Shown piece after piece: positions 18,001 to 60,829 of a stretch of 64,000 bases of DNA. Every line of letters starts with the position of its first letter. The first letter of the stretch is position 1. Origin of the DNA: a virus. Lineage: Duplodnaviria; Caudoviricetes. Where the stretch lies: the IMG/VR virus record IMGVR_UViG_3300025892_000008; one strand, given 5' to 3'. A program made the position numbers and the translations under genes. A model generated the notes under the pieces. The model had not been told where the DNA came from and did no database searches. It worked only from the letters and a program-made list of their open reading frames with translations.

Positions 18001-20962
18001 AGATGCCGGCATAGCAAGTTATGCAGGACTACAAGCATTTAATGACAGTGTTGCTCAAAAGGATATGGTATGGTATAAAAATATCAACGGAAACAATCCT
18101 CCAACACAGCGTAGAGATATCGAAGAAATATTCGAACACATATTCCACACTATACACGCATTTGGTATTCCAGGTGCAGTGCCTGGTAGTTCAGACGCAG
18201 TGGAAATGAATCCAGATATTAGAATTGGTAATGAACCAAGTTTTGATTGGCAAAACACAGCATTACATCTTGCTATGAAAGAAGCAATTGACGCAGGATT
18301 ATATGATCCAAGTGGTTATGCTCCTGATTGGAATACAGATCCAGAGAAAGCGGCAGTGGCATACACAGAATACACTTACTTGGTAAACTGGTCAATGTGG
18401 GATATGAGTGTATACTGGGATGGCGGCTCCCTTAGTCCTGAATGGGATGATAGTTTAAAGACACCAGCAGGTATGTTGGCAAATAACCCATTAGGTTATG
18501 CATTGTTCAATACATACTTTGCTCCAGTGTTGAGCAAACCAGATTTTGCCACAATAGAAAGTATCTTTGGCGAAAATGACACAGGCGTGTCAGGATATGT
18601 TGTTGATGCATTAGTAGGCGGATCACCAGCAGTACCAGCAGTTGGGGATAGTTCTCTTATAACTAATCGAAACGCAGCAATGCCAACATTTATAGGTGAC
18701 GGCTCTACAACTACAATTGAAATAGGAGCCTATGTTACAACCAATGACGGAGACATATTAATTTTCCGTCCTATTGATAGCGATGGTGCAGTAACAATTA
18801 CAGATCCTAATATTGTAGATACCAATTTAACTGGCGGATCTCTTTCTGCAATAGACGGCGCATATGCAACAGCAACAGGATTAACAGTTGAAGAAATAAA
18901 AATTACAGGTGGTCAGTATATAGGTCCAGATCAAGTACCTTCTCCAGAAGAGAATATACCAGGTCAGGTACTTGACAATTTAAGTATTAAAGTATTCCAA
19001 ACAACTAACAACGGCGCAGCACCTCTTGAATCAAATATTTTTACAGGTGACGGCAGTACTACAATATATGAAATAGGACAAGATATAATTGAAGATACTT
19101 CGTTGTTGGTTTATGTAGATGGAATTAAGCAAGTATTAAACACGGATTATACTGCTACAAATACAACTGTAGAATTTACTACACCTGTGGCTGACAAAAA
19201 AATTGAAATTATATCTATTGGAATTGGCGGTGTAGGATTATTAGATTACCAAGAGTTTACAGCAGATGGAGCAACAGGATTATATCTTACAGACGCACCA
19301 TATAGTTTAACAAGTAGCATATTTGTTACTGTTGACGGTGTTGCAAAAGACGCTGTGTTTAGTGATAGCACAGACACTGTTGATACTGTTGGCAGAAGCC
19401 TAGTAGAGTTTGGGCAAATTCCTGCAAAAAATAGTATTATTAAAATAGTTGCTTTCCAGGCTAGCGCAAATATTGATAGTGGACAACTAGGATTAGTAAG
19501 AGTAAACAGACAAACAACAACACTTACTTCTGATAAAACAGTTGACCTAGATAATTTTGTACAATTAACTAGAGAAAGTTCAATATCATCTATGGTAGTT
19601 GAAATCAATAATATTAAACTTAAAGGACCAGACACAGTTTATTCAGTTTATGATGGAGTTACAAATTCATTTATTATTGGACAAGATCCTATAGAAGCAT
19701 CTGGTGCAATACTTTCTGCAAATATCAAAGTATACATTAACAGTGAACTTAAAACTTTTATTACAGATTATGTTTATGATGGTACATCAAAACTTTTAAC
19801 AATTAATACTGATTCTTTAAACAAAGGCGACGTAATAAAAATTGAAAATGATTTACGTGCTGAATTTTCTATTAGTGCAAACAGAATTGTAATTGATGAT
19901 TCGGTATCTTACAACCCAGGAGATATACTAGAAGTTACATGGTTTAGCGAATATCCAAGTATGGAAATTTACAGTGATAGAAATACAGGTGGTAAAGTTA
20001 ATTACGAACTTCCGTATGCTCCACTAGGAATTTCTTATGTTTGGGTTTACAAAAACGGAGTCAGACTTGTTAGAGATACAGATTATACTATCTCATTACC
20101 AAGAGGCGTTGTGTATTTAGAAGTTGATTCAGATGAAAATGATACAATTACTATTACAGCCTTTGGTGCAGATATTTACAAACTACCTAGCTCATACGAA
20201 ATAAGCAAAGACATGCTAAATGTTTACAGATACAATAGATATGCAACAGATAGCAAAATTACTTTAACTTCAGATTTAAATTATTATGATGATAAGATAG
20301 AACTTACTGATGGTAGTAATTTATATAATCCTGTAAGAAACAGAAATATTGCAGGTGTTATTGAGATACATGGAGAAAGAATAGAATACCTTAAAAAGAC
20401 TGGCAATACAATTAGTCAATTACGTAGAGGTGTAAATGGCACAGCAATTAAAGAACTGCACGCCGCAGGTTCTAGTGTTGCTGATATTGGACCAAATGAA
20501 GTTATTCCTTATACAGACAGTCAAGAAAGAACTGATTTTGTAAGTGATGGAAGTTCAAGTCTAATAGGACCGTTAGAGTTTGTACCAACTAAGAGTACTG
20601 TAGGTACATGGACTGCTACAACAATTCCTACAGATTACGGTAGATGTGATACAGTAGAAGTGTTTGTTGGCGGAACTAGACTGCGTAAAACACCGTTAAC
20701 TGTATACGATGAATCTCTTGGACCAGTAAGCCCAGGCGCAGATAAAGAATTAGAAGCAGAATTTGCTGCAGACGGTGTTAATCCTTATATAAGGTTAACA
20801 ACAGCACCAGCAGCAGGAACACGTATAACTGTAATAAAAAGGACAGGAAACACATGGTATGACAAAGGTTTAACTACTGCAAGTAACGGAGTTACACTAT
20901 TAGATAATAATACAGCAATTAGTAAGTTCATTGCTGCGAAGACAACCAGTTTACCTGAATAA
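6026..20962 (+). CDS. Giant (4978 aa) baseplate/virion structural protein, gp7-like position, with CBM-like repeats and FG-GAP-like propeller repeats
   Basis: 14.9-kb uninterrupted ORF directly after the gp6-like gene. About six W/F-x3-Y-x2-GD-x-V-x-Y-x-G-x2-W/Y-x-A repeats; FGxSV-x6-8-(I/V)xG(A/S) repeats around 12500-14400. Confidence 0.75.
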   Translation: MVDKVYPNSQLPIRKSSELLPETFRTDANDKFLSGVVDPLVQPGALDKLSGYVGRRFGKTYNGNSVYLDTDDTLRSRYQLEPGVTVENNQVVTKFYDYLDFKNIETFFGNSNERDDKTTFQEHYSWNPPIDWDKFINYREYYWVPAGPPTVAIFGQTQDIQSTYKVNQGIGSSWVFTPDGLTNNPTLTLYRGQTYKFTINSPGEPFALRTNYDTGSLNFDPLITYFPGDLAAFDGKLWRAKEEVSPADGSSIDLDSQDWELVDSNASFNSLIYNSGVTNNSIEVGTLTFTVPLNAPDVLFYQSETDPNRLGRFIIADIESNTAINVEKEILGKTYYKSANGVELSNGMVVEFRGQVESEKYATDTWLVEGIGKEITLIRFADLIPPNISANTPEILFDNEGFDSQPFDDATLYPANKDYVTINRSSNDSNPWSRYNRWFHRSVLEYAFKYRDSDFDGLETARAKRPIIEFHPGIKLYQQGTIAKASVDYIDDYTKDVFSTIEGSTGYSVDGEFLFEGARVLVTADDDNLANNKIYEVKFIVHNGTRQITLQETTDSKPTINECVLASRGTSNSGKQFYFDGTSWKKSQEKTTVNQAPLFDSFNETGVALDNSNTYPVSSFAGSKIFSYKQGTGPVDNELGISISYQNIDNVGDIEFDWSWETEQFTYTINQQAIIDNTNKHYYQVNGKYENGWVRTQSKYLQPIVDSVTIIDATNIVQTDIIDFDNIDDTVEIIFFRNGDELKESYTRDRNQFTFTTVFQPNDIITIKVVGEIIPKNGYYEIPVGLEKNPLNETLKTFTLGQAADHVKTALEFDTRFTGVLPGVSNLRDISDFTVNAKRFLKHSGVAASALLMLADKEINIVKSLQYAKKQYSLFKENFIKKSFEVDDTSSIPDLVDAIFEQLTKTKSSASPFADSDTLGTGAFTKINYTVDDPGLKTFSLNDTFDLDTLSRRAVYVYKNNTQLLHGKDYTFSSEFAFLTILGNLIQGDSIEIREYVSTASCHVPPTPTSIGLYKKYTPMKFIDDTYRVPTEVIQGHDGSITVAYGDFRDDVLLELEYRIYNNIKQSYEPSVFDIDANLGGYYKNSVFTKAEFDAIASQEFLKWVANTNLAYTANTYLKDTETFTYTYSNMTTPDGDENLPGWWRGAYNYFYDTDRPHRCPWEMLGFSEKPSWWDTQYGEAPYTSGNLILWEDIRDGIIRKGERAGTYKRYARTSILRHIPVNEYGELLSPLDSGLATNFTLTNNKGSFKLGDISPTEYAYRSSSEFPFVVTMALCLLRPFEYIVANFDRSKTKRNIADQIISKSTGIFIKPDEIVLPVTGSTDITSGLAFYIGSYLLSSGKPIATAQSLLSNINVRLTSRLNGFVDKTQQKYLLDSKSPAAASSSIFIPEENYNIFFNVSSPIQTVSYSGIIFEKTEGGWIVNGYDDVHPYFRIYKSIPNQADPTLSVGGVSATFVNWTEDQLYNNGAIAQYRSMFYRAKLTHTSTDKFETDNWTKLPELPIVGAATAQRRRNFNQFATEDVSYGTTFNTVQQVVDFLLGYEHYLKVQGFIFENYSTDNQAMQDFTTAAKEFMFWTRNEWAVGSLLAVSPGAEKLKVTVPIGVVDNILDSFYDYNVLTDNGEPMEIKNFDVNREFQTFTFTINETTRGLFYLKLNYVLKEHVAIFNDRTVFNDVIFDKPTGYRQERIKVQGFRTVDWDGDYTSPGFLFDNVNIISWQPFTDYKLGDIINYQGVNYTSKRNHTSDEEFNAINWTVLDSTPEKKLVPNFDFKINQMEDYFDVDTEGLSQSQRELARHTIGYQTRDYLQNLSEDSVTQFRLYQGFIREKGTNNSFTKIFNKLGRTDNEGVNLKEEWAFKVGQLGGTDQTKVVEIKLDTDNFVLNPQPLLVTNTKNVAELDRYYRINQSDFYFAPIPFTTNINPTTVEKQYLRTAGYVKVDQTKYVVQTRDDIVNIDITGVLNNDHIWVTFDDSDWTVLRINFANELPISNITTDKNKVTVTFTKRHNLNADDFIGFKTFGDIDGFHKITEVTNFTISFETEKPPADVNFEPSTLTYPILLTNARFASYDTLDLEQTALLDRKSKLYIDNNGSNKWEVVEKRKQFSAKKITAYGSTDPKHTGKKVLYLESLNQTIASMPGSGITVVYVETSDGLAVKQLLQLTTGFTTAVTNTYGEELATTPDNKWLIVGSPNASGVPSNYQGMFSTYKNYSANDIVLYEGQLWKAKNTIIGDGSSINVYTEDWEQTFNINALESGSNEGYSNQGMISLYSYSAQQWNYVESFVSPRADGDKLFGSKITVAQTATGYTMAVSAPGLDDTKGRVYLYNYTTAGGWELIQNKDYRGIYQPGGTLTATEILAGRTYTIETLGTTDFMSLGALTNTPGLEFVSTGRGDGTGTVSVESYYPKGSIVFYNGNLWKALADNQGDGSTISIESNDWIKLDSVNTNVSLPSSVSIEDDGSTLASGILSADQLAELIKEGDKFGSSLAFNNDGTTLIIGAVEADGQYFQNYKGNWQPNYEYMENDVVKYQGGYHKLENLGATAVGPDSTIRSYNQAPDDGYPWVNVGDSSTESVGKVFVYTKNDVGFYSLQQTITAESLAEISDLPAEEIISTGDMFGYAVDMDMSGTTLVITSPKADKNFQNQGSAYIFKYESDSSASRYRLKQKIESYGIYPNEYFGQSVCMTSNAAQIVIGANNTGYNLPIRFDTSSTTFDELNTSFTTYGGYSGAVYVFKLKGTRYLLTEKLEDDLSTNESFGYSVSCSNNIIAVGSPKYIAPVVHGPTLDFTGPEAGMVRLFRKDPNVNSLEIIGSEPDKIDLARIKRISLYKDSGDTKIQDLEVVDPAKLKVLAAAEKELTYKTLYDPATYNIGTEDVVVDDTIAWFGKNVGKLWWNVSTAKWLDYEQADIAYRSANWGAQVQGSSIDVYEWVESKLLPSEWSVLADTNEGLQLGVSGQPLYADDTVYSVKEFLNVNTGLVTETKYYFWVKNKVTVPENILGRQISAGEVASLINNPSTLGNTYIALADADKIFFYNYKNIVSDNISILNLEYYNTSSNNNVAHKEFLLLTEGDENSVPNSKLEKKWIDSLVGYDIQGNRVPDTNLPAKQKYGLSFRPRQSMFVNRKQILKQTVESVNAILVKEAFANTIDFTNLNLVDPEPAEVLYLYDVKVDSIVDLENVGTVRVKQAKLSANIVDNEITSINIVDPGFGYKPQQIFTTEASGVYPGPAVTLQGDGVGAEVLTHIDNQGRIVQAVVVNSGKNYTYVNPVVRQFSVLVSSDSTAGNYWSIYAWDDIRKTFYRSASQAFDTTKYWTYIDWWKTGYSETTRVTKEILDTSEEPSIQVAIGDLIRIKEYGSGSWAVFKKETDTSDLPLGNYTLVGRRQGTIKLSESLYNLQVSGTGYDNTVNFDTGLYDLEPTVELRNIFTAIKENIFIGDNKVEWNKTFFNSIRYVLHEQVYVDWLFKTSFLKATHNVGNLKVVPNYSNDNLESFQKYIEEVKPYRTTIREYVSKYNQLEGNGVAANDFDLPAVYSSNDGKIVTVNENSELVTQEPWKTWFDNKGYSITDIVIANGGSGYTSPPNVVIEGNGTGASAQAFVSSGKVTGVRILNKGKGYTSTPTVNLVGGNGASIYDAVAVAYLGEGTTRSFELKVKFDRIAKEGLFTTFTDSQTFTATGTTAVFDLRYAPTIDKTKISITKNNQTVLGSDYTVSVFTKKVDGYSFIHGRIILNDAPQIGDVIKINYSKNDELLDSVNRINKYYNPTDGMKGKELNQLMTGIDYGGVQIQGTTFDVTGGWDALPWFSDSWDSVESSADYYVVADGSTNEVTLPYVPADGQEINIYLKRAGEGTLSTIDNLQYSESVKNPPVIRIDDPYFGSGSPAIPAVPGVPADAEYNNGALITENNGTVFDRALTVNGLKLVVAGAVGGQLAVPDEWAKKTARTFELMTDPNGAGINTTHQRNFLKTLKGDVGTKHAGIPTVQRVGYGGGSTYTPNWLEDAGIASYAGLQAFNDSVAQKDMVWYKNINGNNPPTQRRDIEEIFEHIFHTIHAFGIPGAVPGSSDAVEMNPDIRIGNEPSFDWQNTALHLAMKEAIDAGLYDPSGYAPDWNTDPEKAAVAYTEYTYLVNWSMWDMSVYWDGGSLSPEWDDSLKTPAGMLANNPLGYALFNTYFAPVLSKPDFATIESIFGENDTGVSGYVVDALVGGSPAVPAVGDSSLITNRNAAMPTFIGDGSTTTIEIGAYVTTNDGDILIFRPIDSDGAVTITDPNIVDTNLTGGSLSAIDGAYATATGLTVEEIKITGGQYIGPDQVPSPEENIPGQVLDNLSIKVFQTTNNGAAPLESNIFTGDGSTTIYEIGQDIIEDTSLLVYVDGIKQVLNTDYTATNTTVEFTTPVADKKIEIISIGIGGVGLLDYQEFTADGATGLYLTDAPYSLTSSIFVTVDGVAKDAVFSDSTDTVDTVGRSLVEFGQIPAKNSIIKIVAFQASANIDSGQLGLVRVNRQTTTLTSDKTVDLDNFVQLTRESSISSMVVEINNIKLKGPDTVYSVYDGVTNSFIIGQDPIEASGAILSANIKVYINSELKTFITDYVYDGTSKLLTINTDSLNKGDVIKIENDLRAEFSISANRIVIDDSVSYNPGDILEVTWFSEYPSMEIYSDRNTGGKVNYELPYAPLGISYVWVYKNGVRLVRDTDYTISLPRGVVYLEVDSDENDTITITAFGADIYKLPSSYEISKDMLNVYRYNRYATDSKITLTSDLNYYDDKIELTDGSNLYNPVRNRNIAGVIEIHGERIEYLKKTGNTISQLRRGVNGTAIKELHAAGSSVADIGPNEVIPYTDSQERTDFVSDGSSSLIGPLEFVPTKSTVGTWTATTIPTDYGRCDTVEVFVGGTRLRKTPLTVYDESLGPVSPGADKELEAEFAADGVNPYIRLTTAPAAGTRITVIKRTGNTWYDKGLTTASNGVTLLDNNTAISKFIAAKTTSLPE

Positions 20963-47973: not shown

Positions 47974-48885
47974 TTATGTTCCGATAGCATTACCAAACAA
48001 GTATACATGTACCCTTGCGGCTACATTATATCCACGTTCGAATGCCATCTTAGCAACTGCTCCGGCTGTTGCTGTTTGTTCTTCTTCTCTAGCACCTACA
48101 GGCATAACCCATACAGGATAATTTACACCTTGTGCCTTAAATTGTGAGATAGCATCTTCCATCTCATCCCACTGTTGTTGTTCGGAACCTACAACAAATT
48201 TTAATTGTCCTATAGACAACTTACTATACTGTGCAACTATCTCAGGCTTAATTGCTTTCTTTGCAGCCTCGCCTGCTACACTCCACAGTTTAGGACTTAC
48301 ACTAAAGAACAGTTCGATTTCGTTATCTGCTTCATAAGTCCAGTAATTAATAAATTCTTGTGTTAATGCTTGTGTACCATTAGTTTCAAATGTAACACTA
48401 GCAGGCATATTGCCCATACTCTTAAACTCACGCATGATACCAATGAATGCTTCTTGTCCGTGCTTCATCAACGGCTCACCACCTGTAACACAAAAGTGTT
48501 GTCTTTGTTGTGTAACAGGATGTAGAAACAAACCTTGTGGATTGCTATCTGTTTTAAGTGTATCAATAATTTGTTGTGCTAGTTCAACAGCAGTCTTTTG
48601 ACCCATTAAGTGTTTAAACTTTTTGCTCCATGTGTAACTACTATCACAGCCTTTGTCCCATACAGGCAAATCTTCTACACGTTTTACAGTTGAAGTATCA
48701 AATGTTTCAAACGGCAAATCATATGTATCAGGATTAGTAGGATCAATCTGACCAAATCCGTTACACTGTAAGTTGCATAAGAAAAACCGTATCCAAGCAG
48801 TAGGCACACCTGTATAGTGTCCTTCACCTTGAATACTGTGAAAGATTTCGCTGTAGTAATATTTCTTATCAGTTGCTATTGTCAT
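47974..48885 (-). CDS. queE: 7-carboxy-7-deazaguanine synthase QueE (radical SAM)
   Basis: SEIFHSIQGEG..TGVP..WIRF..CN..C...CDSSYTW, VTGGEPL, FETNGT, SVSPK, GQLKFVV, RVHVYLFG. Start moved to ATG 48885, downstream of the promoter. Confidence 0.9.
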   Translation of the reverse strand: MTIATDKKYYYSEIFHSIQGEGHYTGVPTAWIRFFLCNLQCNGFGQIDPTNPDTYDLPFETFDTSTVKRVEDLPVWDKGCDSSYTWSKKFKHLMGQKTAVELAQQIIDTLKTDSNPQGLFLHPVTQQRQHFCVTGGEPLMKHGQEAFIGIMREFKSMGNMPASVTFETNGTQALTQEFINYWTYEADNEIELFFSVSPKLWSVAGEAAKKAIKPEIVAQYSKLSIGQLKFVVGSEQQQWDEMEDAISQFKAQGVNYPVWVMPVGAREEEQTATAGAVAKMAFERGYNVAARVHVYLFGNAIGT

Positions 48886-49081
48886 TATGTTTATTATACG
48901 CTTTCTTATTGGATTTGTCAACCTCTTTAGTAAGTGAAAAGGAGCCATCGAAATTGTCTGTCCAAACTAAATCGTCTCCAATATCCCATCCCATTTGGTT
49001 TAGTAACTCAGTGGGAATAGGAAGAACCAAATCCTTCGATTTCGGATCTTCCTTTAATTTGATTTTTTGGGTACTAGTCAC
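48869..49081 (-). CDS. AbrB/MazE-like small DNA-binding protein
   Basis: DLVLPIPTELLNQMGWDIGDDLVW matches the swapped-hairpin pattern. GTG start at 49081 inferred from overlap with the upstream stop. Confidence 0.6.
   Translation of the reverse strand: MTSTQKIKLKEDPKSKDLVLPIPTELLNQMGWDIGDDLVWTDNFDGSFSLTKEVDKSNKKAYNKHNDNSN
48893..48921 (-). promoter_or_regulatory. Sigma70 consensus promoter for queE
   Basis: TTGACA (48921-48916), 17-nt spacer, TATAAT (48898-48893), then 7 nt to the ATG. Confidence 0.85.
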
Positions 49082-49283
49082 CAAAATGCTTGTCCAGCAT
49101 TTCGACTCTATCATGTGCAGTTGCCATTTTATCTAACTCTTTTTGGATAGTTTCGATAATATCGCTATGCTCACCAATTCCTACAACCTGTTGCATGTAT
49201 ACTTCAATATTGGCTTTATGCAGATCAATTTCTGCCTCAGCATGCTTCCTTGCTGCATTGATTAATGTTTGTTTCAATGTCAT
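49074..49283 (-). CDS. Hypothetical protein
   Basis: 69-aa helical ORF with an AAGGA SD. Confidence 0.7.
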   Translation of the reverse strand: MTLKQTLINAARKHAEAEIDLHKANIEVYMQQVVGIGEHSDIIETIQKELDKMATAHDRVEMLDKHFGD

Positions 49284-49663
49284 AACCTTTCCTTATAGTT
49301 TTGTTTTGATGGAATTACGCCGCGAACGCCGCCTCTAGGATTCTCCGTATCGCCATCACGACGGAAAATTAAGTGAACATGTGGATAAAGACAAGTTTGT
49401 CCGGCACTCTTGCCCATATTGATACCCACATTGTAACCTGTAATATTGTTATTCTCTGACTTAATGTTGTCATTACCCATAGTAAGAGCAAAATTAAAAC
49501 ACTTTAAAATGTTTTCTTCTGTATTTTGTCTAGGTACAACAAGTGTATGCCCTTCTGTAACAGGATAGATATCGTTATACACAACAAATTCACGTGTATC
49601 AATCTCGACTTGTTTCCAAGGAGCTCTACCATCTTGTTGTGCTATTTCTAAAGTGTCTGTCAT
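49280..49663 (-). CDS. HIT-family nucleotide hydrolase
   Basis: DIYPVTEGHTLVVPR, YNVGINMGKSAGQT, YPHVHLI (first His of the triad replaced by Tyr). Confidence 0.85.
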   Translation of the reverse strand: MTDTLEIAQQDGRAPWKQVEIDTREFVVYNDIYPVTEGHTLVVPRQNTEENILKCFNFALTMGNDNIKSENNNITGYNVGINMGKSAGQTCLYPHVHLIFRRDGDTENPRGGVRGVIPSKQNYKERL

Positions 49664-49980
49664 TCTTCTAGTCCTGAAACATATTCTTCAAATTCTTCTT
49701 GTCCGTACCATGTTTTAAAATCTTCTTGAAAGTCTTCGTCTTCTTGAGCATAGTGCCAAATCACATCTTGTTGATCTTGCGGAAGTCCATTAAACTCAGA
49801 ACGGAAATACCCTGCTTGTTCATAAGAAGCGTCTTCTCTTGCTTCTTCAGCACGACCCCAATCTTCTTCATCATCGCTATCGCCAATTTCATCTGCTTCT
49901 GACCAACTATCATATGCCATTGAATGTGCTTCTTCATTTATATCACTGATGATAGTGTGTGCCTCTTCTTTAGTTAACAT
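49660..49980 (-). CDS. Highly acidic small protein
   Basis: ATG 49980 with an AAGGAG SD; 35 Asp/Glu against 5 Lys/Arg in 106 aa by my count. Confidence 0.75.
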   Translation of the reverse strand: MLTKEEAHTIISDINEEAHSMAYDSWSEADEIGDSDDEEDWGRAEEAREDASYEQAGYFRSEFNGLPQDQQDVIWHYAQEDEDFQEDFKTWYGQEEFEEYVSGLEE

Positions 49981-50128
49981 TATTAATGTACTCCTTAATG
50001 TACCATTCTTTAAATTCTGGATTATCGTTAAAAATAGCAACTACTTCAGGAGCAGAAATTTGTTCAGATCTAATACATACTGCTACACTTTTCCAATCTT
50101 CTTTATCGTAAATTACTTTTATTGTCAT
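49970..50128 (-). CDS. Small hypothetical protein (52 aa, absent from the ORF track)
   Basis: MTIKVIYDKEDWKSVAVCIRSEQISAPEVVAIFNDNPEFKEWYIKEYINNVN; TAATG coupling with the upstream gene; fills the gap exactly. Confidence 0.65.
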   Translation of the reverse strand: MTIKVIYDKEDWKSVAVCIRSEQISAPEVVAIFNDNPEFKEWYIKEYINNVN

Positions 50129-50358
50129 TAAAATCCTCTACCTTTGTTAATTTGAAATATTCTAGGACCAGGTGTTGTAAATTCAAACCCCATCTTATTA
50201 CCAACATAAACTCTACCGTTATATTCCATATGTATTTTATTTGTTGCTAGAAAGATATCTAGAAACTCTTTTTCTTTAAATCTATCAACTTCTGCCTCTG
50301 CTACTTTGTCATTATCTGTGCAAGTAACTGTGCATACATTATCATGTCCTGTTGGCAT
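50128..50358 (-). CDS. Hypothetical protein
   Basis: ATG 50358 coupled to the PRTase stop. Confidence 0.65.
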   Translation of the reverse strand: MPTGHDNVCTVTCTDNDKVAEAEVDRFKEKEFLDIFLATNKIHMEYNGRVYVGNKMGFEFTTPGPRIFQINKGRGF

Positions 50359-50915
50359 TAATACTCTCCTACATTTTCCCAAGGATAAACTAACCAAACA
50401 TCTTCCTCAGATTTATTAACTTCATCACAATAGTAATTAACTAAACCAAATTCGCTTGATAAGTTTTCTGTTAATACTGCAAAGCGAACATTATCTCCCC
50501 ATGCTTGATCCCATATAGGCGATTGAGGTAAACAACTGGATTTCCAATCATCTCTAATCCAGTTAAATGTTGCACCAGTATCATTTATATCATCTACAAT
50601 AAGAATGTTTTTGCAATTAGTATCGTGTTTAAACTGCCCCATCTCAGGAGCATAGTCTCCACTATCATCGTAACCATATGCATCTTCGGCCATCCAACAG
50701 TTGCTTTCACTTTCACTAGTATCATCACGTAGACTTACTTTAATCGCTTCGCAACGTATGCCAGTCATGTTACTAATAATAGTAGCAGGAACATTACCAC
50801 CACGTGTAATACCTACAATGTAATCAGGCTTCCAGTTGTCAGCATACATTTTGTTTACAATATTAACGCACATTTTTTCTACGTCAGCCCAACTATAATA
50901 TTTCTTTTTAATCAT
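50358..50915 (-). CDS. Purine phosphoribosyltransferase (Gpt/Hpt-like)
   Basis: IVGITRGG..PA and the PRPP-binding loop ILIVDDINDTGAT; C-terminal WLVYPWE. Confidence 0.85.
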   Translation of the reverse strand: MIKKKYYSWADVEKMCVNIVNKMYADNWKPDYIVGITRGGNVPATIISNMTGIRCEAIKVSLRDDTSESESNCWMAEDAYGYDDSGDYAPEMGQFKHDTNCKNILIVDDINDTGATFNWIRDDWKSSCLPQSPIWDQAWGDNVRFAVLTENLSSEFGLVNYYCDEVNKSEEDVWLVYPWENVGEY

Positions 50916-51387
50916 TGCGTCCTTCCAAATATTTTTCATTATGTACCCAACGGTATCCTAATGTTTTTACAAAAGGTAAAAAGCCCCATTCCTTTTGTTT
51001 CTTGCCCATATAGAACAAACTCCAACAAGGAATCTCTTTACCGTCTTTATCTTCCTTAAGTTTTAGGTAATGCAGATCATCTGATGATCTAAACCTAAAA
51101 TGCCCAGGCCCACGCCATCTTGCTGTGGCTCCTACTACGTTACCTTCTTGACTATAACAAGGAATGTATTCATAGTATCCGCCTTTTAAAATAAGTGTTG
51201 CATACGACCACGGATGATCGTGTAGTACTGACTCATCACTTACCATAACTTTGTGTAGTGTTATGTTAAAAGGAAAGTTCTTTCGTTCCTTTAAAAACAA
51301 ATAATAACGATCAAGATAAGGTATTTTACCATCTCTATCGTATATAGTTCTTTTTCTACCTAACTTATCAAGCAGTTTCAACAACAT
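50908..51387 (-). CDS. Cupin-like hypothetical protein
   Basis: LHDHPWSYATLILKGGYYE ... DLHYL metal-binding cupin-type pattern. Confidence 0.55.
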   Translation of the reverse strand: MLLKLLDKLGRKRTIYDRDGKIPYLDRYYLFLKERKNFPFNITLHKVMVSDESVLHDHPWSYATLILKGGYYEYIPCYSQEGNVVGATARWRGPGHFRFRSSDDLHYLKLKEDKDGKEIPCWSLFYMGKKQKEWGFLPFVKTLGYRWVHNEKYLEGRND

Positions 51388-51775
51388 CAAAAACCTCTTC
51401 CTTTAAATAACGTTTTAACTCACCGTCAATGGGTTGTACGTTATAGTTATCTTTGAAAAATATCTCATAACTATCAGAGCCATATTTTCCAATTCCGTAT
51501 AACATTGTAGCATCATTTCCGTCCCAAGTCAAGTAATCTTTTGACATTCTACGTAGCCGGTGTTCACGTACATTAACCATTCCTAATGGTTTAATAATCA
51601 TTTTAATTGTATCTGGCGCAGTATTAATCAAATGTACTGGTGTAGGACAAATACCAAATAACAAAGGTAATACTCTTTTTACTTGTTTACGGTTTGTTTG
51701 ATTAAGACAGATAACACCTACCATGTGTTGCCAAGAGCCATCAATTTGCTGTTGCACCATAAGTTCGTCTTTCAT
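51368..51775 (-). CDS. HhH-GPD DNA glycosylase, MBD4-like
   Basis: WQHMVGVICLNQT, LGMVNVR..RL..MS..YL, LYGIGKYGSDSYEIF. Confidence 0.75.
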   Translation of the reverse strand: MKDELMVQQQIDGSWQHMVGVICLNQTNRKQVKRVLPLLFGICPTPVHLINTAPDTIKMIIKPLGMVNVREHRLRRMSKDYLTWDGNDATMLYGIGKYGSDSYEIFFKDNYNVQPIDGELKRYLKEEVFDVVETA

Positions 51776-51981
51776 CCTAGTGTGACCCAATTACTATGTT
51801 TCGGCTTGAACAAAGAATAAACCTGTTTTACTCTTTTGTTATATTCTTCTTCATTCACCGAAATATTATTTAGGTGTTGTCTCCAAATTCTTTTCATATC
51901 GTCTGAAAGTTTTGGGTTTGCTAGAATTAATTTTAAACTTGCTCTACGCTGAGACTGTTTGATTTCCGAATAAGGTCCCAT
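51772..51981 (-). CDS. Hypothetical protein
   Basis: 69-aa ORF whose stop overlaps the next start. Confidence 0.55.
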   Translation of the reverse strand: MGPYSEIKQSQRRASLKLILANPKLSDDMKRIWRQHLNNISVNEEEYNKRVKQVYSLFKPKHSNWVTLG

Positions 51982-52617: not shown

Positions 52618-53307
52618 TTATTGATTACAAGCATATGATTGTTGAAGTTTAATGTTATCCATAAACTCTTTCTTAGTAGCCGCATCGTCTTTGAATGCAC
52701 CTTTAAGAACAGTTGTTTGTGTAAGACTACTGTGTGCCTTAACACCCCTATTCTCAACACAACCGTGTGTTGCTTGTATATACACACCTAAGTGTTCTGC
52801 ACCTGTTGCTTTTTGTATTTCACGGGTAATATCATTTGCAAGTTCTTCTTGCAATGTACCACGTTCAGCACACCATTGTGCAATACGTGTATACTTAGAC
52901 AAGCCAATTAGTTTGTCTGCGGCAATTATACCAATGTATGCTACGCCTCTTACAATCTGATGATGATGTGAACACATACTTGTTAGTTCTGAACGTACTA
53001 CTAGCATACCTTCATAACGTGAAGCACTGTCATTTGGAAATGCTGTTGCACTAGGAATAGGATCATAACGTCCTGCCATTAGTTCATTGATATACATCTT
53101 TGCAAGACGTTTACCAGTTCCCATACTGTTAGGGTCATTATGCCTGTCAATTACAAGTGCATCTAGTACACCTTCAAACTTCTCGGCGGCTTCGTTGATA
53201 AGTTGTTCTTTTTCGCCTTCAAAAATAAAGTCACTGATATTGTCACCTGCCCAATATCTATTTTCTGTATCTTGTAAGCGTTTTGCTATTTCTTCGTATT
53301 TCTTCAA
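52618..53307 (-). CDS. folE: GTP cyclohydrolase I
   Basis: TGKRLAKMY, SMCSHHH, IGLSKYTRIAQW, LQEEL, ATHGCVENRGV. TTG start with a GGAG SD. Confidence 0.92.
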   Translation of the reverse strand: MKKYEEIAKRLQDTENRYWAGDNISDFIFEGEKEQLINEAAEKFEGVLDALVIDRHNDPNSMGTGKRLAKMYINELMAGRYDPIPSATAFPNDSASRYEGMLVVRSELTSMCSHHHQIVRGVAYIGIIAADKLIGLSKYTRIAQWCAERGTLQEELANDITREIQKATGAEHLGVYIQATHGCVENRGVKAHSSLTQTTVLKGAFKDDAATKKEFMDNIKLQQSYACNQ

Positions 53308-53346: not shown

Positions 53347-54387
53347 TTAATGTAACACGTCTAGTAAACCTTTGCAACTAAAATAATCTCCATTCAGTTT
53401 GTTTACTTGTTTATTTAGGTCTGGAAGATAGTTTTTATAATTTTCCATGTATTCTGTAATAAGATTCATTACTTTGGGTTTGTTCTTTTTATATGAATCT
53501 AATGAATCTGTCCATTCACTTGGATATTTAAACTTAGGTAATGCCATTTCAGAATAACTTAACCTATCTGGAACCATTGGAATTGCACCAACAATTGCAC
53601 CTTCATACCAACTTATACCTAGTGTTTCTTGTAAGTTGGCACTAAACACAATTTTTGCTTCTCCTAGTAAGTTGTGATATTCGTTCTTTGAAAGATCTCG
53701 TTCTTGACAAACCACAAAGTTATATTGTGGTAATGCTTCTTTCAAGTCTTGGAATATTGATAGTTGTTTTTCAGGAGCAATCCTGTGTGGGAATAATATA
53801 GTATCCTTTTTAGGCATTCCTTTATACATTGTAAGTGTATCTTCCATGTATTCAAAAGGCCAACCTGTTCTTACTATTTTTTGTTTATCTAAATCAGGAA
53901 AGGCTTTAAAGAACATAAGAATATGGAATTCACTTGCAAAGAAATTATGATCAAAACATTCATACATACTTCTTTCAGCATTTCTTACCCAAGGCTTATC
54001 GCCAATTATCCTACCAAGAAAATCAGCAGGATCGTAACTGCCAGCATGCCATAACCCACCAATTCTGATCTTAACATTAAGTAGCTCAGCCATGTATTTA
54101 AGTTGTATAACAGACGGGTTCCAAGCATCTGTATATAGGAAATAATCCCCATCCTTTACTTCTCCTTTGCAAAATGCATCAGCAATCTGCATCAATTGAT
54201 TTGATTTGTAAACATTAGTCCCACCAAAGTTGAGGAACGCACCAGGTGTTGTTGCCTGTGGCGTATCCCCTCCATTGACTACTCGCACTTTATGGCCGTG
54301 AGCTTCTAGCAGTTTAGGAAACTTTGTTTTCCACTGTTTAGTGTATCGTGTTTCTACTGCTTCAAGATCAACTAGCCAAATATTCAT
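53347..54387 (-). CDS. GT-B glycosyltransferase (GT4-like) inside the deazaguanine cluster
   Basis: LFPHRIAPEK, EX7E motif ETLGISWYE, GAIPMVPDRLSYSE. Confidence 0.75.
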   Translation of the reverse strand: MNIWLVDLEAVETRYTKQWKTKFPKLLEAHGHKVRVVNGGDTPQATTPGAFLNFGGTNVYKSNQLMQIADAFCKGEVKDGDYFLYTDAWNPSVIQLKYMAELLNVKIRIGGLWHAGSYDPADFLGRIIGDKPWVRNAERSMYECFDHNFFASEFHILMFFKAFPDLDKQKIVRTGWPFEYMEDTLTMYKGMPKKDTILFPHRIAPEKQLSIFQDLKEALPQYNFVVCQERDLSKNEYHNLLGEAKIVFSANLQETLGISWYEGAIVGAIPMVPDRLSYSEMALPKFKYPSEWTDSLDSYKKNKPKVMNLITEYMENYKNYLPDLNKQVNKLNGDYFSCKGLLDVLH

Positions 54388-55754: not shown

Positions 55755-57302
55755 TTACGCCTCCTGTAGTTGTTGCTCTAGTTTATCTAGTTCACCATCT
55801 TCTCTATCATCTGCCCAAGGTGTTTTTTCTTCACCTTCTTCGTCTACTTCTACAAACATTCTGTTAAACTCATTGGTAACACCACCACGTAGTCTTGCAC
55901 CTTCTAAGTTTTTAAGGAAACTGTCACCTTCTTTAATCATAGCAAACGCTGCTTCTTTAGTAGGCTGTTCGAACAGTTCTTCGACAAATTTATCAAAGTA
56001 TAAAATGTTACGCGGCACCCAATCAGAATATTCATCACTCTTATCTGCTTCTTTTACTTTTCTCCAACTTCTCCAGTCTGGACGATCCTTTGCCAATTCA
56101 ATATCTGTTAAGTTGTTAGCACGTTGTACCGCAACAATATGTTGATAAACGTTATGTGCCATCATTAGTGCATAACCAAAACTATCCCAAGATGTTTTAC
56201 CTTCTTTACCAATCTTGTTTAACATACCTGGAGCATAATGACAAATGTCAGCAATGCTTAGTCGTCTACCAATTTCACTTTCGAAAGGAAAAGGAATATC
56301 GTGCCTCTTGGCAAGTGCTTTGTTATCAGGAGCCTTGTCCATTATAACTGACCATCTCTTACTTGTATGCTGGCTGTTAGTGTACACTAGTCCGTGTGCT
56401 GTAGCAATAAAAGGACTTGCACAATCAAAACTAACTGTAAAGTTCTCATTAATGTGTTTTCTAACCTGTCGTTGAATTGAAGTAAGATAACATGACCAAT
56501 CAAGTTGTGCAGTACCTAAGAAGTGCATCCAGTCCTTGCCTTCTAGCATACCATCAAATTTCATAGTCATTATACGTCTTAGTGTAATAGGCATTTTGCA
56601 CATATTAGCGCCACCCATTGCCCAGCCTTCACAAGCCTTGTCTTTCCATATAGCAGGATCGGAGAATTCTTTAACACCTTCGTACCACCTTTCAGCAGTA
56701 TCCCAGTCTGAACCCTGTAATACATTTAAGAACTTAGTTGCACCAAGTCTGCGCTCTAACCAATATTTGTTATTAAATCTTGTTTTTTCTAAACAATCTT
56801 CAAAACTCTTTAGTCCTGTTTTAGGCGAATGAATATGATCACATGCCCAAGTAGGAACGTCAAGTAGCATACTCCAGTCTGCTGTAAGTTCGAGCCAATT
56901 AAGAATATCTTCTCTAACCTTATTAGCAGCAGGACCTTCAAAGTTTAGCCAATCAAATTTAAGAACACCTTTACCAACTTGATAACCACCTGAGTCACCA
57001 AGTATCATAGTGTTGCCACGATCACGTGTTTGCACCATACTGTCTTGATCCATTGTTTTATCAAGATTTAATTGTGCGTGTCCTGCGGAATACAATCCAT
57101 ATTTGTATGTAAAGTATCCTTCTTCTTCATTTAAAAAGTTCATACCTTCGATGCCGCGATCAAAGCCTTGCGGAATACGGTCAGTTGGAACGAACTCTTG
57201 CTTACGTTGTTTAGCAATATAAGTGCTGAAGAAAGAACTAATAGCAGGCAAATACACTGCGTAGTCTTTCTGTAATGGTGTTAAGTTGACTGGTTTTTTC
57301 AT
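55755..57302 (-). CDS. dpdA: TGT-superfamily guanine transglycosylase, DpdA-like (probably DNA-acting)
   Basis: TGT active-site motifs in order: DSGGYQ, MLLDVP, NVLQG, WAMGG, HFLG, SFDC. No CxCxxC zinc site of tRNA TGT. Context of folE, queE and a queD-like gene, next to clamp and polymerase. Confidence 0.75.
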   Translation of the reverse strand: MKKPVNLTPLQKDYAVYLPAISSFFSTYIAKQRKQEFVPTDRIPQGFDRGIEGMNFLNEEEGYFTYKYGLYSAGHAQLNLDKTMDQDSMVQTRDRGNTMILGDSGGYQVGKGVLKFDWLNFEGPAANKVREDILNWLELTADWSMLLDVPTWACDHIHSPKTGLKSFEDCLEKTRFNNKYWLERRLGATKFLNVLQGSDWDTAERWYEGVKEFSDPAIWKDKACEGWAMGGANMCKMPITLRRIMTMKFDGMLEGKDWMHFLGTAQLDWSCYLTSIQRQVRKHINENFTVSFDCASPFIATAHGLVYTNSQHTSKRWSVIMDKAPDNKALAKRHDIPFPFESEIGRRLSIADICHYAPGMLNKIGKEGKTSWDSFGYALMMAHNVYQHIVAVQRANNLTDIELAKDRPDWRSWRKVKEADKSDEYSDWVPRNILYFDKFVEELFEQPTKEAAFAMIKEGDSFLKNLEGARLRGGVTNEFNRMFVEVDEEGEEKTPWADDREDGELDKLEQQLQEA

Positions 57303-57307
57303 AATGT

Positions 57308-57313
57308 TATTTA
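57308..57313 (-). promoter_or_regulatory. TAAATA promoter core, 5 nt before the dpdA-like ATG
   Basis: TAAATA-ACATT-ATG overlapping the clamp stop codon; no SD. Confidence 0.55.
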
Positions 57314-58048
57314 GGCCGCCTGTGCTGGAATGATATATTTGTAATTTGCTAATCCACTATCTAGTGTAATTTGAATAGCACCTTCGTTTGAAATACTCAT
57401 CTTAGTATTATTAACATCAGCAATTTTAAGGATAGCAAGAATACTAGCCACTGGCCAAGTCCAACCTTTATCTAATGTACCTTCAACATTTTGTGCGAAT
57501 ACAAATTCACCACCATGTGTACTTGCATCACCAAAGATAAACTTCAAGTTATTATCTTCAGTTTTTGCTAAGAACGTTGGATGTTCAGGATTAGCGCCTG
57601 CTTGGAAACTAAACCTTTGTACTGCTGGCAAAGTTGGAGTTACCTCAACATTCCAGTTAACACCACGAAACTTAACAGTTTTCATTTTTTCGTTAATAAT
57701 TTCTTGATTCATAAAACGATAGTCGTTTTTAAAATCACCATCAGCATTTTCAAAATGAATACCTACTGGAATAGTAGCACCATTTCTTTCAGCATTTGTA
57801 ATAGTAATTTTTGCATCCTTTTGATATTCAGTACCATCAATTAAGTATTTCAACTTATTAAGTTGAGGCATACCAAATGTACCAATCATATCTGGATACG
57901 GGTTATGTGTGTCTGCTTCCATAATAACTGATCTGTCATCAGCCATTGAAAACATTCCTGTCTTATCTTCTTCGCCAGATACCTTAACAGTTGTTAGGAA
58001 ACCTAAGTTCTGTGTGTGGCTGACGATATCTTGTAAAATGTCTTTCAT
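57311..58048 (-). CDS. DNA sliding clamp (gp45/PCNA-like)
   Basis: 245 aa, two-domain size, ends AIQITLDSGLANYKYIIPA as PCNA-fold clamps do; adjacent to PolB. Confidence 0.7.
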   Translation of the reverse strand: MKDILQDIVSHTQNLGFLTTVKVSGEEDKTGMFSMADDRSVIMEADTHNPYPDMIGTFGMPQLNKLKYLIDGTEYQKDAKITITNAERNGATIPVGIHFENADGDFKNDYRFMNQEIINEKMKTVKFRGVNWNVEVTPTLPAVQRFSFQAGANPEHPTFLAKTEDNNLKFIFGDASTHGGEFVFAQNVEGTLDKGWTWPVASILAILKIADVNNTKMSISNEGAIQITLDSGLANYKYIIPAQAA

Positions 58049-58069
58049 TGAATTCTCCTATACATTTAC

Positions 58070-58098
58070 ATTATAATTAAGTTTTGTATAAAACGCAA
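58070..58098 (-). promoter_or_regulatory. Sigma70 promoter for the clamp gene
   Basis: TTGCGT, 17-nt spacer, TATAAT (58075-58070); AGGAG SD downstream. Confidence 0.7.
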
Positions 58099-58106
58099 GT
58101 GCTTTT

Positions 58107-60770
58107 TTACTCAAAATCAAATAAACTGTTAAAGTTATTATCATTACGTGTTTGACTTATGTCCCATTCCAAAACGCCAATTAAGTTTTTAAGTTTTTCA
58201 TCGATAACTGTGTTTTCCATAGTAGCATCATCGAATGGTAACTCTTTGAACCAATCCGGAAGTCTTAGTTCGTCAACCGGATATGCTACACTGGTGTAAG
58301 CCATTGGATTATCTTTAACCTTACATACAATAACTTTTGCACCATCTGTTATGTTTACTGAGTACTTGTCGCCGTTCATACGTTTAAGTGTATTCCAATT
58401 GATACTTGCTCTTACGTGTCCAGGCATATTCACCTTACCTGCTTTCTTTTCCTTTGCTCCATACTCTGTAATCTTATTTGCACGCTTAGGAGAACCTTTC
58501 TCCCAACCTGGACGTGACTTAAACTCTGTTCTAAATTCAGTAATGTAGTCTAGTACATCTTCTTTGTCTTTACCTGCTAGTACCATTTCTAATACATTAC
58601 TCAAAAAGTCTTGAATAACAACAGGAGTATCAGAACGTTTCAAGTCTAAGCCCATTGCTTTAATCTTGCCTGCCTTGCCTTCTGTATCTGTTCTAAATCC
58701 TTCAATGTCATAGTATAACACTGCATAACGTTTCTTTGTAATAAACAGACCTTTACTTGCAACAATCTCTCTAGCAGCCGCAATAACTTCGGAACGTTTT
58801 TTAGGACAATGAAATGCTTGGCTCATAAACTTAGGAAATGTTGCATTAGCATTTTCGCCGATTGTATCATATAGTTCTATAACGCTGTCTTTTGTCCACG
58901 GAATACTACCTGCTTCAATATCTTTTTTCAGTGTGCTATACGCACTGAAGTATGTAGAGTCAGTGTCACCATAAACAATTGCTTTGCCTGTATGATCATA
59001 TTCGCCTGTTACTATCTCATTGATCTTAGCAGCCATATGTTTTGTGATACTTCTTCCTGTAAGTGTAACACTTTGACCGATCCTATTATCGAAAAACCTA
59101 CAACCAGGATTAAGAATAGCGCCATACAAACTGTTAAGTAGAATTTTCTTAACCAACTGTCGCTTTGCCCAGTATTCTTCTTCAATTTTGTTTCCTGCAT
59201 TTTGACTTTCTTTCTGTTTAGCCTGCATTTCTTTACGTTCTTTGTACCAACGTGCAAGTAGTCCAGGAATAATACCTTCTTTTTCGTATGTAAAGATTGT
59301 ACCATTAGCACTTAGCATCCAAGGTTGATTGCTTTCGTAGATTAAATCATATATCTGTGCGGCACTAAGTTTGTCATTGTCGCCATTTTCCCAGTCGACA
59401 GTAATCTCTCTGCTAATCTCTTTGTCCATTACAGAACTATATTCAACACTACCAAACATACCTTCCCATGCACTTGCAAATGATTTGCCCTTTGCCATCT
59501 GTCCATCGATATGTGCTTTTGTTCCTTCTTGACGTAGTTGTCCGACTACAGTCTCAGGACCCATATTCAATGCTCTAATAACAGACGGATACAGTGAATT
59601 CAAGTCAACACTGCCAATCCATTCATGAATACCTTTTTTAGGATAAGCAACATAAGCACCTGCCGCAGGCTCACTGCCTGGCTCACGTTTTACTCTGTTC
59701 GGAACAATCATTCCACGTCTGTGTGCTTCGTTGATAATACCTTGTTCTGTAACTGCAACAGCACCCATTGTTGTTTGTATAAGAACTGTGTTTTCATGTG
59801 CAATAGTATTTGCAAGATCGATAAACTTTAGTTTCTTGTCTAGTTTGTCAAGTAGTGCAGTATCTTGTCTATTGTATTCGATGAATGTTCTAAAGTCGTT
59901 GTTGTATAGTGCATCAAGACTACCTTCATAAACAGTTTTCTTTTCACCTACTTCTAGTTCACCAATAGCATCTAGTCTGTATGTATGGCGTTCTTCATAG
60001 TTGTACTTACGATATAGTTCTAAACTATCTACGTGTACACGACCAATTAGATCATATGTTTGTGATTCCTTACCAAACTTTTCATATATTCTTTTCTTAG
60101 GCTTTTGATCCCACAAGCACAAGCGTCTAGTATCATCTGCGCTTAATACTTTAATGATACGGTTAACAGTGTAAGGCATATCATAACCTTCACTGTTCCA
60201 ACCACTTAGTACATCAGCATCTTGAATAAGATCTAAAAAAGCATCAAGCATATCTGCTTCATTGTCATACAGTATTGTATTTGGAATACCTTCAATTGCT
60301 TTTTGTGCTTCTGCCATTGAAAGTGTCTTAGGAGGAATAGCCAAACAAATAAGTTCATCTAGCCACTGTAAATGCACAGCAATTGATGTAATAGGCATAA
60401 ACGCATCTTCTGGACTTGCGTACCCACGCTCAGGATCAAAGTCAACCTCGATATCCCAAAACGCTACATTTAGTTTAGGAGCATCAACGTTTAAATAGTT
60501 GTCTTCTAAACAGCGATAAATTGGATTTATATCGCTTTCATATAATTTATGATTAGAATGAATTGCAAGTTCCTTGCGCAATTCCTTAATGTTTTTTGCA
60601 GTTACACGCTGTAAAGGATCACCGTAAATAGATTGATGTTTGCCTCTTGGGTCTTTATAATAAAATACGTGTCTTGGGGAATATTCTGTAAAATGTCTTT
60701 TATTGTTTTTTCTTTCTACTACTCGAATAGTATCTTCACTTCGATCATAGAATGCATCTACGTAACTCAT
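58107..60770 (-). CDS. Family B DNA polymerase with 3'-5' exonuclease (gp43-like)
   Basis: ExoI WDIEVD, ExoII GWNSEGYDMPY, ExoIII YNRQD, motif A DLNSLYPS, motif B KILLNSLYG, motif C YGDTDS. C-terminal clamp-type motif NSLFDF. ATG 60770 follows an AGGAG SD. Confidence 0.95.
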   Translation of the reverse strand: MSYVDAFYDRSEDTIRVVERKNNKRHFTEYSPRHVFYYKDPRGKHQSIYGDPLQRVTAKNIKELRKELAIHSNHKLYESDINPIYRCLEDNYLNVDAPKLNVAFWDIEVDFDPERGYASPEDAFMPITSIAVHLQWLDELICLAIPPKTLSMAEAQKAIEGIPNTILYDNEADMLDAFLDLIQDADVLSGWNSEGYDMPYTVNRIIKVLSADDTRRLCLWDQKPKKRIYEKFGKESQTYDLIGRVHVDSLELYRKYNYEERHTYRLDAIGELEVGEKKTVYEGSLDALYNNDFRTFIEYNRQDTALLDKLDKKLKFIDLANTIAHENTVLIQTTMGAVAVTEQGIINEAHRRGMIVPNRVKREPGSEPAAGAYVAYPKKGIHEWIGSVDLNSLYPSVIRALNMGPETVVGQLRQEGTKAHIDGQMAKGKSFASAWEGMFGSVEYSSVMDKEISREITVDWENGDNDKLSAAQIYDLIYESNQPWMLSANGTIFTYEKEGIIPGLLARWYKERKEMQAKQKESQNAGNKIEEEYWAKRQLVKKILLNSLYGAILNPGCRFFDNRIGQSVTLTGRSITKHMAAKINEIVTGEYDHTGKAIVYGDTDSTYFSAYSTLKKDIEAGSIPWTKDSVIELYDTIGENANATFPKFMSQAFHCPKKRSEVIAAAREIVASKGLFITKKRYAVLYYDIEGFRTDTEGKAGKIKAMGLDLKRSDTPVVIQDFLSNVLEMVLAGKDKEDVLDYITEFRTEFKSRPGWEKGSPKRANKITEYGAKEKKAGKVNMPGHVRASINWNTLKRMNGDKYSVNITDGAKVIVCKVKDNPMAYTSVAYPVDELRLPDWFKELPFDDATMENTVIDEKLKNLIGVLEWDISQTRNDNNFNSLFDFE

Positions 60771-60775
60771 TTTTT

Positions 60776-60829
60776 CTCCTATATGCAATTTCAGGCTTGC
60801 AAATACCAATGTGTCGCTTAATGGCCGAC
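60776..60829 (-). promoter_or_regulatory. Structured 5' leader of the polymerase gene (candidate translational operator)
   Basis: Hairpin UGCAA-GCCUGAAA-UUGCA (60784-60801) just before the SD; second hairpin GUCG...CGAC (60813-60829). Confidence 0.5.

Follow-up and report, generated by a model that had tools for sequence, protein, structure and literature searches.

A polymerase-like tail may dock a DpdA-like phage transglycosylase on the sliding clamp

Introduction

Can an enzyme that exchanges DNA bases ride the same sliding clamp as the replicative polymerase? The question is raised by a 64,000-nucleotide stretch of viral DNA (IMG/VR record IMGVR_UViG_3300025892_000008, Caudoviricetes; hereafter the window), in which three neighbours follow one another on the minus strand: a family B DNA polymerase (PolB, 58107-60809), a predicted sliding clamp (57311-58048) and a 515-residue protein (55755-57302) that resembles tRNA-guanine transglycosylases (TGTs) and the DNA-modifying DpdA enzymes. 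As translated, the first and the third of these share a short peptide. Phage DpdA families are a signature of 7-deazaguanine DNA modification, and such modifications are regarded as post-replicative base exchanges (PMC10516641). In the phage RB69 polymerase, the tail of gp43 (residues 883-903) is a peptide of the PCNA-interacting (PIP) type that was crystallised on the gp45 clamp (PDB 1b8h), where it occupies a hydrophobic pocket and its acidic groups meet two basic residues (PMC3012046).

An earlier note, made from the letters of this DNA, had proposed that the DpdA-like protein rides the clamp by means of a copy of the PolB tail. Our follow-up favors, at a probability of roughly 60%, a clamp-tethered, DpdA-like DNA 7-deazaguanine transglycosylase that has no zinc site and whose activity is coupled to replication. 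Window coordinates below are on the minus strand unless marked otherwise.

Results

A peptide shared by PolB and the DpdA-like protein

In the 515-residue protein the peptide reads NEFNRMF (residues 477-483; 55854-55874) and forms a short linear motif, like that of the PolB tail, in a flexible linker; the C-terminal part of the protein is ...LEGARLRGGVTNEFNRMFVEVDEEGEEKTPWADDREDGELDKLEQQLQEA. PolB ends in NDNNFNSLFDFE, with NNFNSLF at residues 891-897 (58119-58139), and translation places both peptides exactly where the earlier note had them. Among the 61 non-overlapping open reading frames (ORFs) of the window (20,741 residues), the pattern N.FN.[LM]F is restricted to these two proteins, and when each protein was shuffled separately the mean number of matches was 0.017, and one of 3000 shuffles reached two matches or more.

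PolB is a T4/RB69 gp43-type polymerase by its matches to Pfam (DNA_pol_B, 8e-34; DNA_pol_B_exo1, 1e-16) and to phrog_262 (2e-197), and its thumb domain is collinear with that of RB69 gp43 until about 30 residues short of both C-termini. Family consensus and equivalence to RB69 mark the last residues, NNFNSLFDFE (58110-58139), as the presumed clamp-binding peptide: the terminal NSLFDFE is the positional equivalent of the clamp-binding tail of RB69 gp43, and the related CC31 gp43 ends in ASLDNMFDF. The longest PolB ORF begins with a TTG at 60809; the PHROG alignment begins at residue 13, and an ATG at 60770 is the likelier start.

The gene between the two, which the earlier note took for a clamp, fits that description in its predicted structure. 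It encodes 245 residues that by modelled fold are a two-domain sliding clamp of the PCNA/T4 gp45 type. The AlphaFold2 (AF2) model, with a predicted local distance difference test score (pLDDT) of 84.5, matched PCNA in Foldseek (E 2e-10, probability 1.0), and in an exhaustive VIA search the best 38 chains were clamps without exception (PCNA, Z 17.6; T4 gp45, 6drt, Z 16.4 with a root-mean-square deviation of 3.0 over 212 residues). The protein had no Pfam match and a phmmer search of PDB sequences gave nothing relevant; its homologues in some jumbo phages carry PCNA or sliding-clamp annotations.

Conservation of the tail in relatives

Across about 70 IMG/VR loci compared (57-96% identity), the order PolB, clamp, TGT-like gene is retained wherever the contig extends far enough. 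PolB ends in the consensus N-[TN]-F-[NGS]-x-L-F-[DST]-F-[DE] at these loci, and the tail of the TGT-like protein follows N-x-F-x-x-L-F-[DE], matching the PolB C-terminus; at one locus an identical 9-mer is common to the two tails. Cognate pairs, with the PolB terminus given before the TGT-like peptide, are NTFGSLFSFD and NTFGSLFSFEE (L070), NTFNKLFDFE and NEFNKLFDFDD (L068), and NTFNKLFDFE and NTFGNLFDFDD (L071). The same comparison gives HFDSLFGW and SFNSLFDVD in PA5oct, and, with both peptides terminal, NNTDLFDW and NNNDLFGW in Vibrio phage 2.275.O, LDDLFDF and VNNLFDFS in the metagenomic contig L005, and TFNDLFTF and VEGLF in Phosso. The PA5oct PolB (L001:1605-6831) is annotated as two pieces with a gene for a Hef-like homing endonuclease between them, and it is the C-terminal piece that bears the clamp-type tail HFDSLFGW.

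The tail of close relatives can be written as ARL[RQ]GG-x-x-N-x-x-x-x-[LM]-F, an acidic stretch and then W-x-DDRED-x-x-LD-x-L. The earlier note had defined the shared peptide as N-x-F-N-x-[LM]-F, and comparison of homologous C-termini upholds a looser version of it: what is kept is the core [N]-x-(F)-x-x-[LM]-F with acidic or hydrophobic residues after it, whereas the exact pattern is not the conserved unit, because its first phenylalanine is replaceable. In an alignment of 19 sequences the tail is unalignable save for F-x-x-L-F, and F483 is at least 90% conserved.

More distant members retain the motif well above expectation, and in many of them it forms the extreme C-terminus, as it does in PolB. 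Counting over the last 70 residues, and defining a strict motif as F..[LM]F or as [LM]F among the last six residues, we found it in 40 of 98 full-length distant cluster representatives. Shuffled tails gave 5.0 +/- 2.1 (maximum 12 in 500), and equal-sized windows from the catalytic core contained the motif in 3% of cases.

A 353-kb relative of the window phage that is 99% complete (G002) allowed a genome-wide count. There, [LM]F stands among the last six residues of 12 of 501 ORFs, no excess over the roughly 13 expected by a hand estimate. Two candidates from this genome, the tail SSDLFE of a DNA methyltransferase and the tail NEDLFA of a QueD-like protein, were rejected as chance matches, their homologues not conserving them. 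To the extent tested, PolB and the TGT-like protein are alone in having a PolB-like tail that is conserved.

Structure of the tail

In the AF2 model of the 515-residue protein, pLDDT is below 50 for residues 473-481 and averages 65 over the following block, so that the motif lies past the folded core within the least confident segment; with such low values it is taken to be exposed, not buried, which removes one objection to the original proposal. The 32 residues after the motif, VEVDEEGEEKTPWADDREDGELDKLEQQLQEA (residues 484-515; 55758-55853), contain 14 acidic and 3 basic residues and carry a net charge of -11. The earlier description of an acidic and probably disordered tail thus holds in full for the acidity and in part for the disorder: the model makes the last 12 residues of the protein a helix, at pLDDT 75-78. 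A complex prediction with the clamp trimer and residues 461-515 returned a median score of 0.27 against a mark of 0.32, a value that, with no controls run, weighs on neither side of the binding question.

Two further elements flank the peptide. A second conserved tail element, W-x-DDRED-x-x-LD-x-L (residues 496-514; 55761-55817), is helical in the model; in distant homologues it takes the form [FW]-x(2-4)-D-[DE]-x-x-L-x-x-L-E, PA5oct having FADINDEKLTELEQ. Immediately upstream of NEFNRMF lies ARLRGG (residues 469-474; 55881-55898), which as ARL[RQ]GG is conserved in the close clade, not in distant homologues. It is a hexapeptide of the same type as the C-terminus of ubiquitin and ISG15, LRLRGG, and may be merely a hinge.

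A divergent enzyme of the TGT superfamily

The earlier identification of the protein as DpdA-like is borne out by AF2, Foldseek, VIA and hhalign, which agree on a catalytic core of TGT/DpdA fold at residues 1-465 (55908-57302). The core model is confident (mean pLDDT 93; predicted template modelling score 0.91) and matched the Zymomonas mobilis TGT in Foldseek (E 3.5e-8, probability 1.0). The five top VIA matches all belong to the TGT superfamily—archaeosine TGT (1iq8, Z 18.7), QTRT2 (6fv5, 17.1), bacterial TGT (3unt, 16.8), the DNA preQ0 insertase DpdA (7ui4, 15.4) and Cap10 (9ntn, 14.2)—and other TIM barrels reach Z 11.8 at most, 3-7 Z units lower. Among the predicted viral structures of BFVD, TGT/DpdA-like proteins of Achromobacter phage Motura, Vibrio phage nt-1 and Cellulophaga phage phiST were matched; these matches, which bear on the named subfamilies bDpdA and DpdA1-4, are at the level of fold only (nt-1 protein, E 6.5e-9; phiST M4SLA5, E 5.9e-4).

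Sequence conservation points to the same active site. In an alignment of 118 homologues, D103, S104, G105, G106 and Q108 of the motif DSGGYQ (residues 103-108; 56979-56996) are invariant or at least 90% conserved, and D103, the presumed catalytic aspartate, is invariant or nearly so together with H260 and with D293 of SFDCAS (56424-56426), the presumed second catalytic aspartate and nucleophile. Judged by motif rather than by residue-level superposition, D103 and D293 would be the equivalents of the Z. mobilis TGT residues.

A protein of the Pseudomonas putida jumbo phage vB_PpuM-Peetri supplies the sequence bridge from this family to TGT. Peetri_00102 scores 32.8 bits against PF01702, above the Pfam TGT threshold, and aligns with the profile of the 515-residue family in hhalign (probability 97.8%, E 6.8e-13), which pairs DSGGYQ with ADSGGFQ and D293 with the aspartate of ITSDAS. 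With the TGT fold, the conserved aspartate motifs and this transitive link, the 515-residue protein is a divergent TGT-superfamily enzyme that has kept the catalytic aspartates and lost the zinc site. Peetri_00102 itself is an unannotated protein of 456 residues (L121:5947-7317) with an intact CxCxxC, and its tail contains GKASSLFAS.

The family is very large, with over 7,700 clusters at 90% identity matching at E 0.001 or better and 877 representatives doing so at 50% identity. By tblastn, homologues were found only in PA5oct-like phages, Vibrio phage 2.275.O and Phosso, and all 13 phage records with a homologue label the gene "hypothetical protein." Upstream of the Phosso homologue, a 241-residue gene product considered as a second clamp was dismissed at an hhalign probability of 0.1%. 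Two remote members of about 30% identity have no motif (proteins P0249 and P0221, loci L089 and L090) and lie between integrase and HATPase/response-regulator genes, away from any replisome genes; these neighbours suggest that cellular mobile elements or defence islands also carry the subfamily.

A 7-deazaguanine pathway nearby

Genes for the supply of a modified base stand close to the TGT-like gene. The window encodes FolE, the GTP cyclohydrolase I of the first step of 7-deazaguanine synthesis (52618-53307; Pfam PF01227, 4e-37), and a QueE-like radical SAM enzyme (47974-48948; phrog_2076, "QueE-like radical SAM domain," 6.5e-53) whose NCBIfam QueE matches are weak and under the cut-offs. In PA5oct, QueE adjoins the homologue of the 515-residue protein; in Vibrio phage 2.275.O the homologue adjoins QueF-like, QueC, aminohydrolase and FolE genes, and in contig L005 it adjoins FolE. 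The FolE-like gene of Phosso adjoins PolB and the clamp, far from the Phosso homologue. G002 encodes a QueD-like 6-pyruvoyltetrahydropterin synthase (PTPS).

Searches of G002 found no canonical TGT, QueC or QueF, with controls responding, and QueC and QueF were not found among the window genes scanned either. For this reason the base is probably derived from 7-carboxy-7-deazaguanine (CDG), and, as in DpdA3 phages, synthesis seems to go no further than CDG or a derivative of it. The DNA of PA5oct resists several restriction enzymes with G-containing sites, and its authors suspect a modified G from the QueE and PTPS genes, naming no transglycosylase (PMC12191111). The 515-residue family is the obvious candidate for the missing DpdA of this jumbo-phage lineage.

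Discussion

A model for replication-coupled base exchange

We propose that FolE, the QueD-like enzyme and QueE would produce a 7-deazaguanine base, which the TGT-like enzyme would swap for guanine in duplex DNA by means of its two aspartates. The linker peptide NEFNRMF, copying the PolB tail, would dock the enzyme in one of the pockets of the clamp, where it would be concentrated on freshly replicated DNA and able to slide along it. A homotrimeric clamp offers three such pockets, and therefore PolB and the transglycosylase could share a ring, or the enzyme could use lagging-strand clamps left behind. If the enzyme docks on the phage clamp, the exchange would consequently take place on freshly replicated DNA, with modification probably right behind the replication fork.

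A broader version of this proposal extends to a whole abundant jumbo-phage lineage (PA5oct-like phages, Vibrio 2.275.O, Phosso; more than 7,700 clusters), which would couple hypermodification to replication with a DpdA-like enzyme as the tool-belt partner of PolB on the clamp, allowing high or complete replacement of guanine; the terminal xLF tails of remoter TGT-like proteins would then mark the same strategy with other clamps. We regard this extension as an even bet.

Several observations pull in the other direction. Docking is carried over from the RB69 gp43-gp45 precedent, and we infer both DNA, rather than tRNA, as the substrate and the effect of the tether on the extent of modification. 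For the 515-residue protein, and likewise for its homologues in PA5oct, Vibrio and Phosso, Pfam gave no match at E <=0.1, PF01702 included; neither phmmer nor two family-alignment profiles produced a direct match among PDB sequences; and a PHROG search of the protein was likewise empty. The zinc site CxCxxC...H is absent, ESEIGRRLS facing LPCNCPVCT of Peetri_00102, and across the 118 homologues no cysteine is conserved. The motif itself is not rigid: in the closest relatives its first phenylalanine is replaced (TNISNSLF, TNIAHTLF), and a few loci have degenerate forms such as NILTF and NKLMIV. In Phosso the TGT-like gene lies far away from the PolB and clamp genes. Cognate PolB and TGT-like motifs, finally, share 4.62 identities of 9, against 4.35 when pairs are permuted (a value as high as that observed arises in 13 of 5000 permutations, and relatedness confounds the comparison); this weak pair-specific covariation means that the likeness is one of family-level consensus, not of fine co-evolution.

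Alternative explanations

The direct evidence is a peptide that both PolB and the TGT-like protein carry, and that peptide could be a genuine docking element for another replisome component, such as the clamp loader, the single-stranded DNA-binding protein, the helicase-primase or PolB itself, and the second conserved element of the tail, acidic and amphipathic, suggests more than one partner. We consider this unlikely, given that the PolB tail corresponds in position and composition to the gp43 tail of RB69 and T4, known to bind the clamp, that a gp45/PCNA-type clamp gene adjoins both genes in about 70 loci, and that clamp binding generally relies on [LM]F-type peptides (PMC3012046). Slightly less probable again is a protein that associates with the clamp and exchanges no DNA base. 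It might modify tRNA as TGTs do, sense or bind modified DNA, or serve, like QTRT2, as a scaffold without catalytic activity. Loss of the zinc site in the family would suit such a role, QTRT2 (a non-catalytic TGT paralogue) scores as high in VIA as the catalytic TGTs, and tests of DpdA3 and DpdA4 in E. coli showed no activity (PMC10516641). Across 118 divergent homologues, however, neither catalytic aspartate motif varies, the linkage to 7-deazaguanine synthesis genes is consistent, and Pfam detects no other TGT-like gene in the complete relative G002; a clamp tether, moreover, makes sense for an enzyme of DNA and not for one of tRNA.

It is also conceivable, at longer odds than either of these, that the likeness is incidental and the tail an acidic DNA-mimicking or autoinhibitory appendage that happens to include an LF stretch. 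A net charge of -11 over 32 residues fits this idea, as does the moderate-confidence helix at the tail end, which could pack on the core; and in G002 terminal [LM]F is no commoner than chance, with the methyltransferase and QueD-like tails having proved unconserved. Set against this are the retention of the motif within a tail that otherwise cannot be aligned, with F483 at least 90% conserved, and its eight-fold enrichment over shuffles in distant relatives. In many of the latter the motif shifts to the extreme C-terminus, as in PolB, and it follows the PolB consensus up to identical 9-mers. On balance, docking of a base-exchanging enzyme on the clamp accounts best for what the locus contains.

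Relation to known systems

The 515-residue protein resembles DpdA enzymes (bDpdA and phage DpdA1-DpdA4) in its TGT-type TIM barrel (Z 15.4 to 7ui4), in the conserved DSGGxQ aspartate and second aspartate, and in being encoded by a phage near genes for FolE, QueD and QueE. DpdA3 phages (phiST, CP220) share with the complete relative G002 that QueC and QueF are not found (PMC10516641), although the protein is about twice the size of the DpdA3 of phiST (M4SLA5, 259 residues). It differs from known DpdA proteins in that its family has no zinc-binding cysteines and no sequence match to Pfam TGT or to PDB chains, in a C-terminal extension that bears a PolB-like docking motif, and in the embedding of its gene between the clamp gene and the genes of deazaguanine synthesis; by sequence it is not assignable to any of DpdA1-4.

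The gp43 tails of RB69 and T4 offer the closest parallel for the peptide: short, hydrophobic and aromatic, of [LM]F type, with acidic flanks and at the end of a flexible segment. PolB of the window has its peptide at the equivalent place, and the neighbouring clamp shares the gp45 fold (Z 16.4). What sets the window phage apart is a copy borne by a second, non-polymerase enzyme, for which binding is predicted by analogy, and which in the clade of the 515-residue protein is not terminal but has 32 residues after it.

Tethering of DNA enzymes to clamps is itself a familiar arrangement: DNMT1, UNG2 and MSH6 associate with PCNA, and MutL and MutS with the beta clamp. As in those modification and repair enzymes, a PIP-type peptide would place an enzyme that acts on new DNA on the clamp left behind the fork. 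In T4, peptides of RNase H and ligase bind gp45 (PMC3012046; title of entry 6drt). Full-text searches of the literature turned up no report of a sliding clamp in connection with a DpdA or TGT enzyme. To our knowledge, none among DNMT1, UNG2, MSH6, MutL/MutS and the T4 RNase H and ligase is a transglycosylase or belongs to a phage hypermodification pathway. Neither DpdA enzymes nor clamp-binding peptides are new; the novelty lies in a long, zinc-less DpdA-like subfamily with a probable clamp tether of polymerase type.

Clamp docking, if true, would explain how an enzyme of this kind could reach and replace most or all guanines of a genome of several hundred kb within one infection cycle. Modification would then follow the fork, and a DNA hypermodification enzyme would join the clients of the clamp. 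The finding also supplies a DpdA candidate for PA5oct-like therapeutic phages, whose DNA seems to carry a modified G and in which previously only QueE and PTPS had been reported (PMC12191111), and the PolB-like tail offers a simple sequence signature for spotting replisome-coupled modification enzymes in metagenomes.

Other features of the locus

Downstream of FolE, a cluster of small enzymes occupies 49280-51790. Matches to the libraries searched identify a HIT-family protein (49280-49663), a phosphoribosyltransferase of xanthine/hypoxanthine type (50358-50939) and an HhH-GPD glycosylase-like protein (51368-51790); a cysteine-dioxygenase-like PHROG is matched at 50908-51390. With the phosphoribosyltransferase beside the deazaguanine pathway, the base could also be converted to a nucleotide. 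A gene of 346 residues that always follows the region of the TGT-like gene (53347-54387) encodes a product with no Pfam, NCBIfam or PHROG match; in Phosso the corresponding gene carries the label "DNA primase." The first half of the window has plus-strand genes, and amid them runs a single ORF of 4,978 residues (6026-20962, plus strand).

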